Shown here piece by piece: positions 3,302 through 35,913 of a stretch of 64,000 nt of DNA. A program made the translations under genes and the position numbers. Positions within the stretch are counted from its first letter, which is position 1. Every line of letters starts with the position of its first letter. The DNA is taken from NCBI RefSeq assembly GCF_056712565.1, contig NZ_CM160072.1; one strand, given 5' to 3'. The notes beneath the pieces are model-generated. The model did no database searches. It worked only from the letters and a program-made list of their open reading frames with translations, and was not told the origin of the DNA.

Positions 3302-3417
3302 TCCTGGTTAAATTTCATTTTTCGCGGGTATAAAAAAACGATGGGGCGGGCAGTCCGGAAGACGTCAGGTCACAGGGATTTGACCCGCCCCTCCCCTCAG
3401 AAAGTTGAGAATTATTA

Positions 3418-3768
3418 TCACTTCAGTCGTTCACGGGCCGTCTTCGCCTTATGACACGGCCAGCACAGGCTCTGCAGATTGCAGTCTGCATCAGTGCCGC
3501 CATGCGCTTTAGGGATGATGTGGTCAACGGTTTTCGCCTCACGCACCACACCGACATGCAGGCACAACTGACACAGGCCTTTGTCACGCTTCAGCACGCG
3601 CGCGCGGATAACATCCCACTTCGAACCGTAGCCGCGCTGGTGACGGGATTGTCCTGGCTTGTATTGTTTCCAGCCTTCGCTTTTGTGGCTTTCACAATAG
3701 CCTGACGGATCAGTGGTGGTTTGGCGGCAGCCGCGAACGCGGCAGGCTTTTGGGGTTCGTGGGGGCAT
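3418..3768 (-). CDS. HNH endonuclease (terminase-associated)
   Basis: 116 aa with cysteine-rich zinc-finger pairs (CRVRGCR, CQLCLH, CWPCH) and DHIIPKAHGG HNH motif; canonical position upstream of terminase genes. Confidence 0.85.
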   Translation of the reverse strand: MPPRTPKACRVRGCRQTTTDPSGYCESHKSEGWKQYKPGQSRHQRGYGSKWDVIRARVLKRDKGLCQLCLHVGVVREAKTVDHIIPKAHGGTDADCNLQSLCWPCHKAKTARERLK

Positions 3769-3870
3769 TTAAAGTGGGATCTAACTCTAATAATTTAAAA
3801 AATTTAATTGGGTCTTGATATTAATCACATAGACTCAATGCTCTTTAGTTCTTACATAGGTGGTTGTATT

Positions 3871-4311
3871 ATGAGTATCCCCAGTTTAGATGTTCATAAA
3901 GTTGTTAAGTGCGCAGAGCATAAAAAGGCTTTAGATGCAATATCTCTCAAACTTAAGAATAACATTATTGACTCAAGCTCTGAATACGATTTTCTTGGCG
4001 ACACAATAATTTTCAATAAAGATAAAAAAAATAGGTTAACCCTCAAACTTTCAACATATGAACTAGAACTTATTTTCAAAGAAACACTGCTAGTCATTGA
4101 TGAAGCTCCTGTATTGAAGTTTGCTGCCATTGACCCAACCGATGAAAATAACAACGAGCTGATTGATTTATTTTTATCCAAAGGTGGATTTATTTATATT
4201 AGAGAATACAAATCCGAGCCACATTATGAGTATGGCGACACTTCTCTATTTTTACATATACTTGACGCTACTCTTAAAGAGCTTAAATCTGCAAACAAAA
4301 TATCCTATTAA
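3871..4311 (+). CDS. Hypothetical protein, AT-rich moron
   Basis: ORF 3808..4311; likely start ATG 3871 (MSIPSLDV...) preceded by AGGTGG. Very low GC versus flanking phage genes, opposite strand to the structural/lysis genes, no recognisable motif. Confidence 0.45.
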   Translation: MSIPSLDVHKVVKCAEHKKALDAISLKLKNNIIDSSSEYDFLGDTIIFNKDKKNRLTLKLSTYELELIFKETLLVIDEAPVLKFAAIDPTDENNNELIDLFLSKGGFIYIREYKSEPHYEYGDTSLFLHILDATLKELKSANKISY

Positions 4312-4417
4312 ATAAATTTTTGCTAACATAGCCCCGCGCCATGACAAGATTTTCTGTTCTAGATGCAAGGGCTATGTGTGAATATCTATAAACAAAAACC
4401 CCATCCGGTGATTTTTG

Positions 4418-4669
4418 TCATTTTTTAGCCATCTCAATTGCGGCATCAAAAAGTCGTTCAAGAATAAAATCAGGGTACTGTAATTTTTCTTGCTCGATAT
4501 GAAGCTCATAAATTTTCCCTTCCCACTCCCATTTAAAATTAAATCCAGAAGCAGAAGGTGCGAAATGTGTTTTAGCTTTAGGGTTAGCGTAACCAGCAAC
4601 AGTCAACACATCAAACTTAAAATCTTGAGGTTTAATACGCATAATCATATCCTTTGCCAAGTTCATCAT
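4418..4669 (-). CDS. Hypothetical small protein (83 aa), AT-rich moron
   Basis: Intact ORF in the same low-GC island, convergent with 3871..4311; no recognisable domain. Confidence 0.35.
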   Translation of the reverse strand: MMNLAKDMIMRIKPQDFKFDVLTVAGYANPKAKTHFAPSASGFNFKWEWEGKIYELHIEQEKLQYPDFILERLFDAAIEMAKK

Positions 4670-4739
4670 TATTCTTCGCGATTATAAAACAATGAATAAA
4701 ATCATTAAAGCATAGACGTTAAATATCCTCAAAATGTGA

Positions 4740-5177
4740 TTAGTTGGGACATTGCGTCCTGATATACTCCTGCAAGTAATTGACCTGTGAGGTTATCTTG
4801 TCGATTCCACTTCGGAGACGGTAATAATGGAGTTCAGCATCTGCTGTAAGTCTAGGGCTTTCTCCATCGCCCATGCCGCTGGCTCCGGTCGTTGACTTTG
4901 TACAGGTGGCGGCGACTTGCAGGCGCTTATGCCCAGCAGAAACATCAGCACGAAGACTTTCGATAGTCGCATTAGCATCAGCAAGCTCCTTTGTATATCT
5001 GGCATCGAGTTCAGCTACATTACGTTGACGCTTCTGCATATCAGCGATGATGGATGTGGCTTTATCGCGCTGTACTTTGTAGACGATGGCGTCATCACGG
5101 TAATTATCAACAGCCCATGACAAGCAGACGATGATGCAGATAACCAGAGCGGATATAATCACCGTTACTCTGCTCAT
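4740..5177 (-). CDS. Rz-like i-spanin
   Basis: 145 aa with N-terminal TM anchor then coiled-coil-like periplasmic region; overlaps and follows the lysozyme gene; contains an embedded Rz1 frame. Confidence 0.75.
4793..4972 (-). CDS. Rz1-like o-spanin lipoprotein, embedded in Rz in another frame
   Basis: Internal start [18 protein letters not shown] gives a signal peptide with lipobox (ISAC) followed by a proline-rich segment ([14 protein letters not shown]), as in lambda Rz1. Confidence 0.6.
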
Positions 5178-6093: not shown

Positions 6094-6429
6094 TTATTTT
6101 ACATCCCAAGGTAGTTCCTCAAGAGAGAAGACTAATTCATTATCAATAATTTCGTATTCTGCATAACCTTCAACCTCTCCTGAGAAGTTATTGTCAACGC
6201 ATCCTTCATAATAGCTATATGGTGCTATAAAGTGAAACCCATATTCATCTATCTCTGTGATTTCAAAATTGTAGTAATCGTAAGAATATCGAATATCATC
6301 ATCAGAAATAGAACTAAGTACATAGTTATTAAATTTATCGGAATGCTTAACGATAAGTTCTGACAACGCGTCAAGATTCTCTGGAGAGATATTTCCTAAC
6401 GGTAATCTGTACTCAACGGCATTAATCAT
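6094..6429 (-). CDS. Hypothetical acidic protein (111 aa), late-region moron
   Basis: Low-GC ORF rich in D/E/Y, bracketed by two terminator hairpins, between the Q antiterminator and the lysis cassette. Confidence 0.5.
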   Translation of the reverse strand: MINAVEYRLPLGNISPENLDALSELIVKHSDKFNNYVLSSISDDDIRYSYDYYNFEITEIDEYGFHFIAPYSYYEGCVDNNFSGEVEGYAEYEIIDNELVFSLEELPWDVK

Positions 6430-6477
6430 ACAACCTCCTTTTTAACTGATATGAGGTTATATAATGTGTTTCAGTAC

Positions 6478-31571: not shown

Positions 31572-32237
31572 AATAAAGAAAACCTTTTAACGCCAAAACA
31601 AAAAAGTATTTCGTCGCGTAGTGTAAGCGATCACTTATTATATTTCCACAAAATTTAATCTATTTACAGTCCTGCACGAGATTATTTCAGCTGTTATTTT
31701 CTGAAACTCTCAGAATAATTTCAAGATTATATATTAGCCATTTTGATGAGTAATTTAGGTTATTGGTGAACAGAGCGGCGCTCTCTGCTCGCTAATTCCG
31801 CAAGCCCGACAAAACCAAAGTGAATAAAAATGCAACTCAACAGAATAAAAGAAAACATCTATCACTGGTGCTTTCTGCTGTCAATGTACATTATCTGGCA
31901 TAAAAAATGCTGAAAATGACCCGATCACTACATACACCGAATTCTCTACGCTTATAGCGTTACCTCCCCCCAAACCTTCATGAGTGAAAATAAAGGTAAA
32001 CACATATCCAATTGATTTAATTAAAAACAAATCATATCGGCATGTAAAAATCCACAATGTACAAAAAACGCGCCGTTACGGAATATTTTATCTACAAAAA
32101 CAGATTAAATAAAAATTTTTCACTAATTGATTAGTCATAGCCAGCGATATACGCTATGCGAAAATGCAGATGGCAATGAGATCCACTGCTTTCATCTCCA
32201 TTCACATCCCATTACGCTTTTATTAAGGAGCATTAGC

Positions 32238-33068: not shown

Positions 33069-33219
33069 ATTTGATCCTCGTTATTATCAACCGCGGGCCT
33101 ACCTTACCTGATTGCGCATTCACAACGCTTTCAGAAAAGTCCATAAAGCCGCGATGAACCTCAGTTAAGAAAATTATGGTCTACACTGAAAATTACATCG
33201 AATTCTAATGGGGGATCAT

Positions 33220-33549
33220 ATGTTTAACCGACCGAACCGCAACGACGTTGATGATGGCGTGCAGGATATCCAGAATGATGTCAATCAATTAGCTGATAGT
33301 CTCGAATCTGTATTGAAGTCCTGGGGCAGCGACGCCAAAGGGGAAGCCGAAGCCGCTCGTAGTAAAGCGCAGGCTCTACTGAAAGAAACCAGGGCGCGAA
33401 TGCATGGTCGTACTCGCGTCCAGCAAGCCGCGCGTGATGCCGTTGGCTGCGCGGATTCTTTTGTTCGTGAAAGACCCTGGTGTAGTGTGGGTACAGCGGC
33501 AGCGGTGGGTATTTTTATCGGCGCACTGTTAAGCATGCGCAAATCGTAG
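33220..33549 (+). CDS. ygaM: Ribosome-associated membrane protein YgaM (ElaB/YqjD family)
   Basis: 109 aa from MFNRPNRNDVDDG with C-terminal TM anchor. Confidence 0.85.
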   Translation: MFNRPNRNDVDDGVQDIQNDVNQLADSLESVLKSWGSDAKGEAEAARSKAQALLKETRARMHGRTRVQQAARDAVGCADSFVRERPWCSVGTAAAVGIFIGALLSMRKS

Positions 33550-33605
33550 TGCAAAAATGATAATAAATACGCGTCTTTGACCCCGAAGCCTGGCTTCGGG
33601 GTTTT

Positions 33606-34940
33606 TTAGCTTAAGGCTTTACGTAATTGTTGTGCTACCTGTCGCGCCATACCTTCGTTAACGATATTAGTAAACGAAAGCAGTAATCCACCTTCCCCAC
33701 TTGAACGGATACGCCAGTCGCTAAGTGCCTGCACCGCAAGGCCTGCAGCATTGGCTTTACGCGCATGGGCAATATCATCGCCTATCATTCTGATCACCAT
33801 CTGGATACCACCTTTCTGCGGCACAACCTGAAATCCTTGCTGCGTCAACGCTTGCTCAATCCATTGCCGACGTTGAGCATAATGCTGACGCATTTTCTTC
33901 AGATGCCGCCAGAAATGCCCCTCGCGAAGAAAGTCTGCCAGTGTGTTCTGCCATAGAACAGGTACCGCACATGGAGCCAGTGACGCCTGGTGGCGGAATT
34001 GTGCAATTTGCTTCACCGGCACCACCAGCCACGCACAGCGCAATGCAGGAAATAGCGCTTTGCTGAATGTTCCGGCATAAATTACCCGCTGCGGTGCGTC
34101 GAGACTTTTTAACGCCGGTAACGGCTTACCGTGATAGCGAAACTCACTGTCATAATCATCTTCAATAATCCATGCCTGACTACGATCTGCCCATTCCAGT
34201 ATCTGATGCCTGCGCGCTAAAGAGAGCGCCACACCCAGCGGACTTTGGTGTGCTGGTGTTATCAGGGCAAAACGCGCATCAGGATAATTTTGTATTCCGC
34301 TTGTGATATCCAGTCCATTGTCATCAACCGGCACAGGCAAAATTTCCACATCATGGCGAGTGACAATCGGGCGAATCAGTGGAAAGCCGGGATCTTCTAT
34401 CCACATCCCGTTTCCCGGTTTCGCCAGCGCGTGCAGAATTAAAGCTATTGAGGCCGCATAACCGTGAGTGATAAAGACCTGCTCTGGCTGACAATCAATC
34501 CCACGTGAAACGCGTAAGTAATCAACTATTGCCTCGCGCAACGCCGCCTCACCGCAGACATCGCCTAACGCCAAATCAAAGCGCGTCTGGGTACGAAGGC
34601 GACGCCCCATCACCCGCGCCCACAGCTCTCGCGGAAAGAGATCGAGTGCGGGTAATCCCATTTGAAATGGCAACGGTTGCTGACTTTCACCGGCAAAAGC
34701 TACAACTTGTACAGTAGATTGTTGCGGATATATCCGCTCACTGACAAATGTGCCAGCCTGTCCCCGCCTGATCAGCCATCCTTGCGCCACCAGCTCAGCA
34801 TACGCATTTTCGACAGTGGATCGAGACACCCCCAGCTCCTGCGACCAGGTACGACTTGAAGGCAGCCTTGCGCCGGGTTTCAGTTCCCCTTGCTCAATAG
34901 CCGTTTTTAACTGACGGGCGATATCCTGATAGCGCGGCAT
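33606..34940 (-). CDS. MocR/GntR-family regulator with PLP aminotransferase-like domain
   Basis: 444 aa; N-terminal GntR HTH (MPRYQDIARQLKTAIEQGELKPGARLPSSRTWSQELGVSRSTVENAY) and large C-terminal class-I aminotransferase fold; not part of the K-12 ygaM-nrdH interval as I recall it. Confidence 0.8.
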   Translation of the reverse strand: MPRYQDIARQLKTAIEQGELKPGARLPSSRTWSQELGVSRSTVENAYAELVAQGWLIRRGQAGTFVSERIYPQQSTVQVVAFAGESQQPLPFQMGLPALDLFPRELWARVMGRRLRTQTRFDLALGDVCGEAALREAIVDYLRVSRGIDCQPEQVFITHGYAASIALILHALAKPGNGMWIEDPGFPLIRPIVTRHDVEILPVPVDDNGLDITSGIQNYPDARFALITPAHQSPLGVALSLARRHQILEWADRSQAWIIEDDYDSEFRYHGKPLPALKSLDAPQRVIYAGTFSKALFPALRCAWLVVPVKQIAQFRHQASLAPCAVPVLWQNTLADFLREGHFWRHLKKMRQHYAQRRQWIEQALTQQGFQVVPQKGGIQMVIRMIGDDIAHARKANAAGLAVQALSDWRIRSSGEGGLLLSFTNIVNEGMARQVAQQLRKALS

Positions 34941-35027
34941 ATGGTCTGCTTTTTTAGGTAATTTATGGCTCTCTTTAGCAGTCCATTATAGTGCTACATT
35001 GCGGGCGTTAATAAGAGGAGAAACTGT

Positions 35028-35459
35028 ATGACTACATTACGTCAGCCTTACTACGAACTTAGCCCGGCAGTGTATAACGCACTAGTGCAGGCCAAAACGG
35101 CACTGGAAAATAGCACGCTGGATACCACGTTGATGGAGTTAGTTTATTTGCGCGTCTCGCAAATCAACGGCTGCGCATTTTGTCTGGAGATGCACAGCAA
35201 AGCATTGCGCAAATCCGGCGTGCCACAGCACAAACTGGACGCCCTGGCAGGTTGGCGCGTAAGCCATCATTTTGATGAACGCGAGCGGGCGGCGCTGGCA
35301 TGGGCGGAATCGGTAACCGAAATTGCCAGAACCCATGCGGAAGACGAGGTTTATCAGCCTTTGCTTGAGCATTTCAGCGCAGCAGAGATCAGCGACTTAA
35401 CGTTTGCCATCGGGCTGATGAATTGTTTTAACCGTCTGGCCGTTTCCATGCGGATGTAA
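35028..35459 (+). CDS. Carboxymuconolactone decarboxylase / AhpD-like protein
   Basis: 143 aa with the AhpD-type CxxC-containing motif (NGCAFCLEMH); divergent from the MocR-type regulator. Confidence 0.7.
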   Translation: MTTLRQPYYELSPAVYNALVQAKTALENSTLDTTLMELVYLRVSQINGCAFCLEMHSKALRKSGVPQHKLDALAGWRVSHHFDERERAALAWAESVTEIARTHAEDEVYQPLLEHFSAAEISDLTFAIGLMNCFNRLAVSMRM

Positions 35460-35667
35460 CTTCTTGATGCCGGGTATTTGCCCGGCAAAAAAACACAAAA
35501 TCCCCTACCCCGTTGAGCCATTCATCGGTGGCGTAATCAATCTAAAATTCCCATATCTTGTGTGGTTGAATCTTTTTTCAACTACATCTAGTATCTCTGT
35601 ATCAACAGAGAGACAACCCGACGCGTATCATCGCGCCGTATCTTCATTTTAAACGGAAATACGAATC

Positions 35668-35913
35668 ATGCGCATTACTATTTACACTCGTAACGATTGC
35701 GTCCAGTGCCACGCCACCAAACGGGCGATGGAAAACCGGGGCTTTGATTTTGAAATGATTAATGTCGATCGCGTTCCTGAAGCGGCAGAAGCGCTGCGTG
35801 CTCAGGGCTTTCGTCAGTTGCCGGTTGTGATTGCAGGCGATCTTAGCTGGTCTGGTTTCCGCCCGGACATGATCAATCGTCTGCATCCAGCGCCACACGC
35901 GGCCAGTGCATGA
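35668..35913 (+). CDS. nrdH: Glutaredoxin-like protein NrdH
   Basis: 81 aa with CVQC redox motif. Confidence 0.95.

Follow-up and report, generated by a model that had tools for sequence, protein, structure and literature searches.

A MocR–AhpD-like gene pair between ygaM and nrdH and its apparent loss from K-12-type Escherichia coli by deletion

The 64,000-nucleotide stretch of DNA analysed here (the window; contig NZ_CM160072.1 of NCBI RefSeq assembly GCF_056712565.1) carries a divergent gene pair between ygaM and nrdH. One gene encodes a MocR-family regulator (here mocR) and the other a small AhpD-like protein of the carboxymuconolactone decarboxylase (CMD) family (here the CMD gene). We read the pair, with a probability of roughly 75%, as a vertically inherited MocR–AhpD-like regulatory module that was lost from K-12-type Escherichia coli by one deletion. 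An original prediction, made from the letters of the window, had taken the pair to be inserted next to the nrdHIEF operon; its interpretation is partly supported, with the direction of change wrong.

Gene order in Enterobacterales and the deletion junction

Both open reading frames (ORFs) are found in the ORF list of the window exactly where the original prediction placed them (Table 1). They are divergent and 87 bp apart, as had been claimed, and Pfam and NCBIfam models bear out the two families. The left neighbour is ygaM (NCBIfam PRK10132, E = 3.5e-68) and the right neighbour is nrdH (NCBIfam PRK10329, E = 1e-56), which is followed by nrdI-nrdE-nrdF. The region is 100% identical to that of strains UTI89, S88, APEC O1, IHE3034, NU14 and the type strain ATCC 11775. 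The placing of ygaM and nrdH side by side in K-12 was also correct: in MG1655 the two genes are separated by 247 bp, and the pair, looked for in K-12, is absent from it.

A scan with the MocR protein, using one genome per bacterial species, gave 79 loci, in which eight neighbour proteins were placed by tblastn. The order nrdE-nrdI-nrdH-CMD-mocR-ygaM-ygaC-alaE(-stpA), with the same relative orientations, is shared by E. albertii, Pseudocitrobacter (2), “Escherichia sp. ESNIH1”, Pseudescherichia vulneris, Cedecea (2), Pluralibacter (2), Shimwellia and several “Enterobacter sp.”. The shorter order nrdEIH-CMD-mocR-ygaM-ygaC is present, whole or partial, in 21 loci of other species. Altogether the pair keeps its position and orientation beside ygaM/ygaC, mostly with nrdH as well, in ∼20 other Enterobacterales species. 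Variants of the locus exist. Three Citrobacter (Citrobacter sp. FP75, C. werkmanii and C. youngae) have mocR-CMD beside nrdH and have lost ygaM, so that mocR abuts ygaC (at about 6330-6460 of their loci, L003-L005). The Kluyvera locus retains the ygaM side, with no nrd gene within the stretch examined, and a Klebsiella sp. locus likewise has no nrd gene within the stretch examined. A looser form of the order is seen in Rahnella (Yersiniaceae). MocR identity drops smoothly with taxonomic distance, from 91% to 77%, 62-71% and finally 47%, and the E. fergusonii proteins fall into the same 90%-identity cluster as those of the window. Judged from these alignments, the pair is an old enterobacterial locus that has been inherited vertically and was not inserted into this strain.

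Homology between K-12 and the window (97-98% identity) ends at 33607, just past the T-run of the ygaM terminator, and is clean again from 35553. The 73 bp that intervene in K-12 are a diverged copy of window positions ∼35478-35552, including the 3′ arm of a hairpin that follows the CMD gene (the post-CMD hairpin); arm and spacer read GCCTGGT…CACAAAAATCCCCCTACCCCGT in K-12 vs GCCCGGC…CACAAAATCCCCTACCCCGT in the window. Only this 3′ arm (GCCTGGT) is left of the hairpin in K-12 and in strains of sequence type (ST) 131. The remnant derives from beyond the missing genes, which is the signature of a deletion. As reconstructed from this junction, one deletion of ∼1.87 kb, reaching from the ygaM terminator to the post-CMD hairpin, removed the pair from K-12-type E. 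coli. Since outgroups carry the pair at the same site, island hallmarks are missing and K-12 keeps a remnant, K-12 represents the derived, deleted state.

The opposite scenario, in which B2-type E. coli acquired the pair as a small islet between ancestrally adjacent ygaM and nrdH, could draw on the absence of the pair from K-12 and from ∼74% of complete E. coli genomes, and on mocR alleles that are ∼10% apart between B2 and O157, which could suggest separate acquisitions. It is countered by the shared position and orientation in the ∼20 other species, where protein identity declines with taxonomic distance, and by the GC content over the pair (0.50-0.55), which equals that of the flanks. Genomic islets are recognised by absence in outgroups, odd composition and border repeats or mobility genes, and the locus has none of these features. 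A repeat search of 33400-35750, together with the ORF list, found no direct repeats or mobility genes at the segment edges and only short two-copy matches, and no integrase or tRNA was seen at the borders in the ORF list of the window. Moreover, a single, identical absence junction is common to several phylogroups, and K-12 keeps the degenerate hairpin arm and spacer. An insertion is therefore very improbable, and we regard it as effectively refuted already.

An A-run instead of a U-run follows the post-CMD hairpin, so that it is not a canonical terminator. In Citrobacter sp. FP75 a longer, REP-like palindrome (GCCGGATGGCG…CGCCATCCGGC) takes its place. The spacer behind it (35478-35552) has 91% identity between B2 and O157 and ∼56% between B2 and K-12, and in one part of it (CGTCACGCTCAT…CCAGG) the K-12/ST131 version is closer to Citrobacter than to B2. 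An Rfam scan of the 30-40 kb part of the window (E ≤ 0.1) gave no matches.

Distribution and divergence among E. coli genomes

Of the 5,426 complete E. coli genomes surveyed, 1,387 contain at least some of the segment, with an identity of at least 99% in 1,007, 95-99% in 15 and 90-95% in 365. The last class consists of O157:H7 and O145:H28 strains; CE10 (O7:K1) stands at 99.5%. An intact pair is carried by 1,276 genomes, including ST95- and ST73-type B2 strains, CE10, O157:H7 and O145:H28. The K-12-type 247-bp junction was found in 4,033 genomes, and a further 111 have a partial segment (69% coverage) with a truncated mocR. Carriers of the junction include K-12 derivatives, O111:H8, O113:H21 and, unexpectedly, O25b:H4-ST131, which belongs to B2 (the phylogroups of the named strains are those we presume). 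A description of the pair as ‘B2-specific’ would be wrong; O157:H7, O145:H28 and CE10 have it, and the B2 lineage ST131 is without it.

The ST131 locus (L084, 4985-5250, compared with window 33540-35670) has exactly the K-12-type junction, and its 73-bp remnant is only ∼96% identical to that of K-12. Its nrdHIE flank is B2-like, with 1-5 differences per 300 bp from the window in most bins between nrdH and nrdE, against 11-17 from K-12. The same junction with so diverged a remnant, inside a B2-like flank, implies that the deletion allele is old and shared across phylogroups. On these comparisons there was a single deletion event, and its allele is now present in several phylogroups; ST131 would share it either through recombination or because the polymorphism is ancestral.

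The 111 partial genomes share a second deletion, of 589 bp. The mocR start codon is lost with it, together with the winged helix-turn-helix (wHTH) domain, the linker and, in operator box C (see below), the first base; the CMD gene is left intact. RefSeq labels the rest of mocR in these genomes as a pseudogene “missing N-terminus”. Natural regulator-null strains of this kind include the urinary isolate CFE299 and the dog isolate CUVET18-565 (compare locus L082, 1497-2330). In addition, the ygaM-nrdH interval used as query has a match in NZ_CP044293.1 (E. coli P276M) over no more than its final 69 bp, which suggests another, larger deletion or rearrangement.

All mocR and CMD alleles examined are intact. 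From comparisons within E. coli out to Citrobacter, the ratio of nonsynonymous to synonymous substitution rates (dN/dS) is 0.07-0.12 for mocR, except for the near-identical window-CE10 pair (0.31); the CMD gene has 0.03-0.08. In all carrier genomes listed (of ∼1,280 carriers) the two genes are annotated by RefSeq. Given these low ratios (0.03-0.12) and the annotation, both are to be regarded as real genes under purifying selection rather than as chance ORFs.

Divergence between the B2 and O157 alleles is uneven. The identity is 89.4% for mocR, 97.7% for the CMD gene and 100% for the 87-bp intergenic region. Synonymous divergence (O157 locus L081) is 0.34 in ygaM and 0.41 in mocR, and about fourfold lower, ∼0.09, in the CMD gene and nrdI. 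This fourfold excess suggests that ygaM-mocR (33208-34940) is an old or imported haplotype block in one of the lineages. The O157:H7 locus also has an insertion of ∼29 bp (AGGGGATTTTGCCCTGGTCACCAGTCTTA) that follows the ygaM stop codon and precedes the terminator, at window ∼33575, and is not found in B2, CE10, K-12 or E. albertii.

The regulator, its operator and the AhpD-like protein

The regulon link at this locus was already predicted in 2016, and the locus is ordinary. In the comparative-genomic reconstruction of MocR regulons by Suvorova & Rodionov (2016, Microb Genom, PMC5320631), the supplementary group “Spro_3719 – Enterobacteriales”, with COG2128 (AhpD/CMD) as target, shows the same pairing of a MocR regulator with a divergent COG2128 (PF02627) AhpD-like gene. 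Its members are Salmonella LT2 STM2803, C. koseri CKO_04020, a K. pneumoniae member, Enterobacter 638 Ent638_0497, Pectobacterium ECA2654 and Serratia Spro_3719. E. coli is not listed, presumably because K-12 is without the pair, and the presence/absence polymorphism in E. coli is not described there. In the same tables P. fluorescens PFL_2191 is assigned COG2128 + AcpD + GNAT, exactly the operon that we find in Pseudomonas loci, and a separate “PA0268” group has COG2128 as target in Pseudomonas, Burkholderia and Ralstonia. In all, 53 of the reconstructed MocR regulons include COG2128; the Spro_3719 group is given in the supplementary tables only, with no discussion in the main text and no function, ligand or experiment. 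Literature searches returned no paper joining “MocR” with “carboxymuconolactone decarboxylase”, none naming STM2803, nothing relevant for “carboxymuconolactone decarboxylase” with nrdH and E. coli, and no experimental work on these E. coli or Salmonella genes.

The mocR product begins with a GntR wHTH domain (PF00392, residues 4-66, E = 1.4e-17) and continues with an aminotransferase class I/II domain (PF00155, Aminotran_1_2, ∼100-440, E = 2.8e-26). The lysine expected to hold pyridoxal 5′-phosphate (PLP) is K294 in GTFSK294AL, which aligns with K309 (GAFSK) of Bacillus clausii PdxR; B. subtilis GabR aligns in the same GTFSK motif. The protein thus combines the marks of the MocR family, namely a wHTH, an aminotransferase-like domain with the PLP lysine, and a multi-box operator shared with a divergent gene, and it would be expected to bind DNA and control transcription in a PLP- or ligand-dependent manner. 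Its best matches in the PDB are B. clausii PdxR (9.5e-63) and B. subtilis GabR (2e-54). Both proteins (PDB 7PQ9, PMC10450172, and 4N0B) have the same domain architecture and PLP lysine, and in both cases the regulator is divergent from its target. They differ from the present system in their targets, pdxST or gabTD instead of an AhpD-like redox gene, in the sequence of the boxes, here (C)AG(A/T)CCAT, and in the host, here a gammaproteobacterium with a PLP route that depends on 1-deoxy-D-xylulose 5-phosphate (DXP).

Alignment of the divergent promoter regions of 22 Enterobacteriaceae loci, whose MocR proteins are 62-91% identical, revealed a near-invariant block, which reads on the mocR strand TAGCACTAT(A/G)ATGG(A/T)CTG – N9 – (G)AGCCAT – N10 – AAAAAA – GCAGACCAT – mocR start codon. 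It holds three boxes, A, B and C, which are invariant in the 22 loci; A and C form an inverted repeat, and B is a direct repeat of C. In each of the 21 loci that match, boxes A to C span exactly 46 bp, and the pattern ATGGNCTG-N25-32-CAGNCCAT has one copy in the window, with 0.01 expected by chance. A three-box layout also precedes the mocR homologues of Pseudomonas, Burkholderiales (Massilia and Azoarcus), Hafnia and Budvicia, for example as ATGGCCTA…AGGGCCAA…TAGGCCATG; in these taxa box C is overlapped by the start codon of mocR. In B. clausii the operator fragment of PdxR measures 48 bp and contains two motifs in direct orientation, a third that is inverted and an A/T-rich bend; holo-PdxR clamps its outer inverted pair (PMC10450172). 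The present operator is closely alike, with 46 bp, two direct motifs, one inverted motif and an A/T tract, and by this analogy the A6/T6 tract beside box C likely serves to bend the DNA. The operator also has two perfect inverted matches of 11-12 nt to the coding sequence of mocR, which were dismissed as chance, being neither collinear nor kept in the O157 and outgroup alleles.

Two overlapping, divergent −10 candidates can be assigned in the conserved block. If they hold, all three boxes lie between the mocR −10 element and its start codon, which would suggest autorepression, and relative to the putative CMD promoter box C would fall at about −58/−50, box B at −34/−27, where there is no recognisable −35 element, and box A at −21/−13. 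A PLP-dependent MocR dimer would most likely bind the 46-bp operator within the 87-bp divergent promoter region. Covering the mocR −10 element, start site and leader, it would probably repress its own gene; covering the −35/spacer part of the CMD promoter, it would probably control the CMD gene in a ligand-responsive way. By analogy with PdxR, a ligand-dependent switch of the dimer between the C+A and the C+B pairs might set CMD transcription and always limit mocR transcription. This account of DNA binding and of the direction of regulation is predicted from sequence, as is the enzymatic activity discussed next.

The CMD protein matches Pfam CMD (PF02627, E = 3.5e-21) and the AhpD core domain TIGR00778 (54.9 bits, cut-off 27.8). 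The CxxC that had been claimed is present as C49-A-F-C52, part of an AhpD-type relay, E37-x11-C49-A-F-C52-x3-H56, that can be read directly. The closest structures are P. aeruginosa PA0269 (PDB 2IJC/2O4D/7XW1) and A. tumefaciens Atu0492 (2GMY). PA0269 was recovered by phmmer over residues 3-143 (3.3e-31) and by BLASTP with 41% identity over 141 residues without gaps (8e-40); like Atu0492 it shares the ∼143-residue size and a Glu-Cys-x-x-Cys-His relay in the N-terminal helices. It is all-helical, AhpD-like and likely a hexamer, its relay Glu36/Cys48/Tyr50/Cys51/His55 superimposes on that of M. tuberculosis AhpD, and it has weak H2O2-reducing activity that is blocked by N-ethylmaleimide (PMC3141380). 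Hexamer and activity are those of PA0269 (PMC3141380), from which those of the E. coli protein are predicted. The regulator next to PA0269, PA0268, is also listed as a MocR group for COG2128, but this orthologous group is separate from Spro_3719. M. tuberculosis AhpD has the CMD fold and the E-x11-CxxC-x3-H signature in common with the present protein; it differs in carrying the motif in its C-terminal helices, in being trimeric and in being encoded with ahpC (PMC3141380). We expect the CMD protein to be small and probably hexameric, an AhpD-like thiol-redox protein whose proton relay is E-x11-CxxC-x3-H. Its most likely role would be the Cys-dependent reduction of hydroperoxides or disulfides when the cell responds to stress or detoxifies. 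The AhpD of M. tuberculosis depends on lipoamide and DlaT.

In Pseudomonas (loci L021-L023, L027, L028, L041 and L046, at ∼3350-4900) the operon divergent from mocR consists of a GNAT gene (PF00583), a gene for an AzoR/AcpD-type flavodoxin-fold flavin mononucleotide reductase (PF02525) and the AhpD-like gene. In one Pseudomonas locus a pyridine-nucleotide-disulfide oxidoreductase gene is also in the operon. Pectobacterium, Massilia and Azoarcus (L024, L033 and L040) add just one gene, GNAT or reductase, to the CMD gene, and Enterobacteriaceae keep only the CMD gene. As far as gene content can tell, these operon partners speak for redox or xenobiotic detoxification and not for a place in vitamin B6 metabolism.

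Competing functions and wider meaning

Several observations count against a module as described above. It is evidently dispensable, since 111 natural genomes have the CMD gene without a functional mocR and ∼74% of E. coli are without both genes. In Salmonella, STM2804, of “no known function”, served as a supposedly neutral site for marker insertion, ∼5 kb from stpA, in mouse competitions (PMC3723669); by gene numbering it is probably the orthologous CMD gene. The CMD protein scores 30.9 bits against the full-length AhpD hidden Markov model TIGR00777 (cut-off 191.95) and the ORF list has no ahpC adjacent at the locus, so that on sequence grounds it is not a bona fide AhpD. Moreover, the middle residue of the relay is Phe (C-A-F-C) where M. 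tuberculosis AhpD has His and PA0269 Tyr. The peroxidase activity of PA0269 is itself weak, and no physiological substrate or reductant of that protein has been identified (PMC3141380). Finally, a consensus scan for promoters and terminators called nothing in the intergenic region, with overall counts at shuffle level, and the promoter elements were assigned by eye from the conserved block; the scan missed the −10 candidates because of their poor −35 elements. An O157 protein, z3974, was pulled down with a salicylidene acylhydrazide and gave no Far-Western signal (PMC3191033). Its identity with this gene is unconfirmed, and it was not used.

The newer name given by RefSeq through its annotation pipeline (PGAP), “MocR-like pyridoxine biosynthesis transcription factor PdxR” (label pdxR), implies a genuine PdxR that controls PLP synthesis or salvage genes, with the adjacent CMD gene incidental. 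The name follows from a score of 407.1 bits against the NCBIfam PdxR equivalog NF052282, above its cut-off of 320, and the top PDB match and the similar operator architecture lean the same way. Yet PdxR proteins control pdxST, pdxK or similar genes, typically divergent, and here neither the window nor any of the 22 syntenic loci has a pdx neighbour; the CMD gene is invariably the conserved partner in the divergent position, in distant taxa within the GNAT-reductase-CMD operon. Within the window the operator pattern has its sole copy in the gap that separates mocR from the CMD gene. PLP synthesis in E. coli follows the DXP-dependent pathway, and the species lacks pdxST. In the published reconstruction the Spro_3719 group, with COG2128 as target, is separate from PdxR, PdxQ and PdxW. 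A true PdxR is accordingly improbable, and because of the conserved CMD target and the separate orthologous group we consider the RefSeq name to be probably an over-annotation, which is propagating. Similarly improbable is a coupling to class Ib ribonucleotide reductase, in which the AhpD-like protein would work with NrdH, NrdI and NrdEF, for instance in the role of a thiol reductant or of a protectant when conditions are oxidative or iron is limiting, perhaps with read-through into nrdHIEF. The link implied by the original prediction stands as far as position goes: adjacency to nrdH is kept across Enterobacteriaceae and in Rahnella, both proteins have CxxC redox chemistry, and read-through past the post-CMD hairpin, without a U-tract, is conceivable. 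It fails in that the mocR-CMD pair occurs without nrd genes outside Enterobacterales, in Pseudomonas and Burkholderiales, as well as in Hafnia, Budvicia and others and in the Kluyvera and Klebsiella sp. stretches (L006 and L018), that K-12 and ST131 have lost the pair and still have an nrdH upstream region conserved at 99-100%, and that the operator is not near nrdH. A functional link to nrdHIEF is thus unlikely. Least probable of all is a true gamma-carboxymuconolactone decarboxylase (PcaC) of aromatic catabolism; the Pfam CMD match would fit it, but the protein has the AhpD-type CxxC relay, which is absent from gamma-CMD enzymes (PMC3141380), there are no pca genes nearby, and its best structural relatives are AhpD-like proteins.

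Going beyond the regulatory module that we favour, one may speculate that it is a dedicated sensor and detoxifier of a specific reactive small molecule, and that niche-specific selection rather than drift keeps the polymorphism in E. coli. The idea comes from the expansion of the operon by GNAT and AzoR/AcpD-type reductase genes in Pseudomonas and Burkholderiales, and we hold it to be rather unlikely. If it were true, the PLP site of the regulator would do the sensing, with aromatic amines, azo or quinone compounds and carbonyl-reactive compounds as candidate triggers. The module would then have been kept in ST95, ST73 and O157, lost through one shared deletion in K-12, B1 and ST131, and deprived of mocR alone in a further lineage. 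In any case, the present results correct an easy misreading of the locus as a “B2-specific insertion” beside nrdHIEF, with K-12 as the derived state. A precise 46-bp operator and natural lineages that are mocR-null or pair-null offer a handle on what the widespread MocR-AhpD-like regulon senses. The practical value is modest, and a specialist will not be surprised.

Table 1. Positions of the genes, signals and deletions of the ygaM-nrdH interval in the window.
Feature	Position	Strand	Remarks
ygaM (DUF883/ElaB family), left flank	33220..33549	+	conserved in presence and absence haplotypes
ygaM intrinsic terminator, 11-bp stem + T-run	33579..33607	+	left border of the segment that K-12 lacks
mocR-family regulator gene, 444 aa	33606..34940	-	GntR wHTH + aminotransferase-like PLP domain
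present/absent segment, ∼1.87 kb	33608..35477		right edge approximate (35473-35481), inside post-CMD hairpin
589-bp deletion in 111 E. coli genomes	34357..34941		ends approximate, few bases of microhomology
operator box C	34941..34949		ATGGTCTGC plus strand, GCAGACCAT mocR strand; abuts mocR start codon
A6/T6 tract (plus strand TTTTTT) beside box C	34950..34955		near-invariant
operator box B	34965..34972		ATGGCTCT plus strand, AGAGCCAT mocR strand; at expected −35 of putative CMD promoter
operator box A	34978..34986		GCAGTCCAT plus strand, ATGGACTGC mocR strand; outer partner of box C
overlapping divergent −10 candidates	34985..34992		putative; TATAAT minus (34990 to 34985, mocR), TATAGT plus (34987-34992, CMD); in conserved block TAGCACTATAATGG
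strong Shine-Dalgarno of CMD gene	35013..35020	+	AAGAGGAG; sequence reading
AhpD-like CMD-family gene, 143 aa	35028..35459	+	motif E37-x11-C49-A-F-C52-x3-H56
post-CMD hairpin	35468..35487	+	UGCCGGGU-AUUU-GCCCGGCA; conserved; A-run after it instead of U-run
fast-evolving spacer	35478..35552		K-12/ST131 copy strongly diverged, core CACAAAA(A)TCCCC(C)TACCCCGT
nrdH upstream region (35553-35667) + nrdH (35668-35913), right flank	35553..35913	+	upstream region 99-100% conserved, presence vs absence haplotypes

The ygaM terminator and mocR share bases, as the stop codon of mocR (33606-33608, minus strand) falls partly within the T-run. For ygaM the start given in Table 1 is that of RefSeq; the mechanical ORF begins at 33208. 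Further to the left, the stpA-alaE intergenic region (31600-32200) has a low GC content of 0.355-0.38, compared with ∼0.50 around it, and has no Rfam match at E ≤ 0.1.

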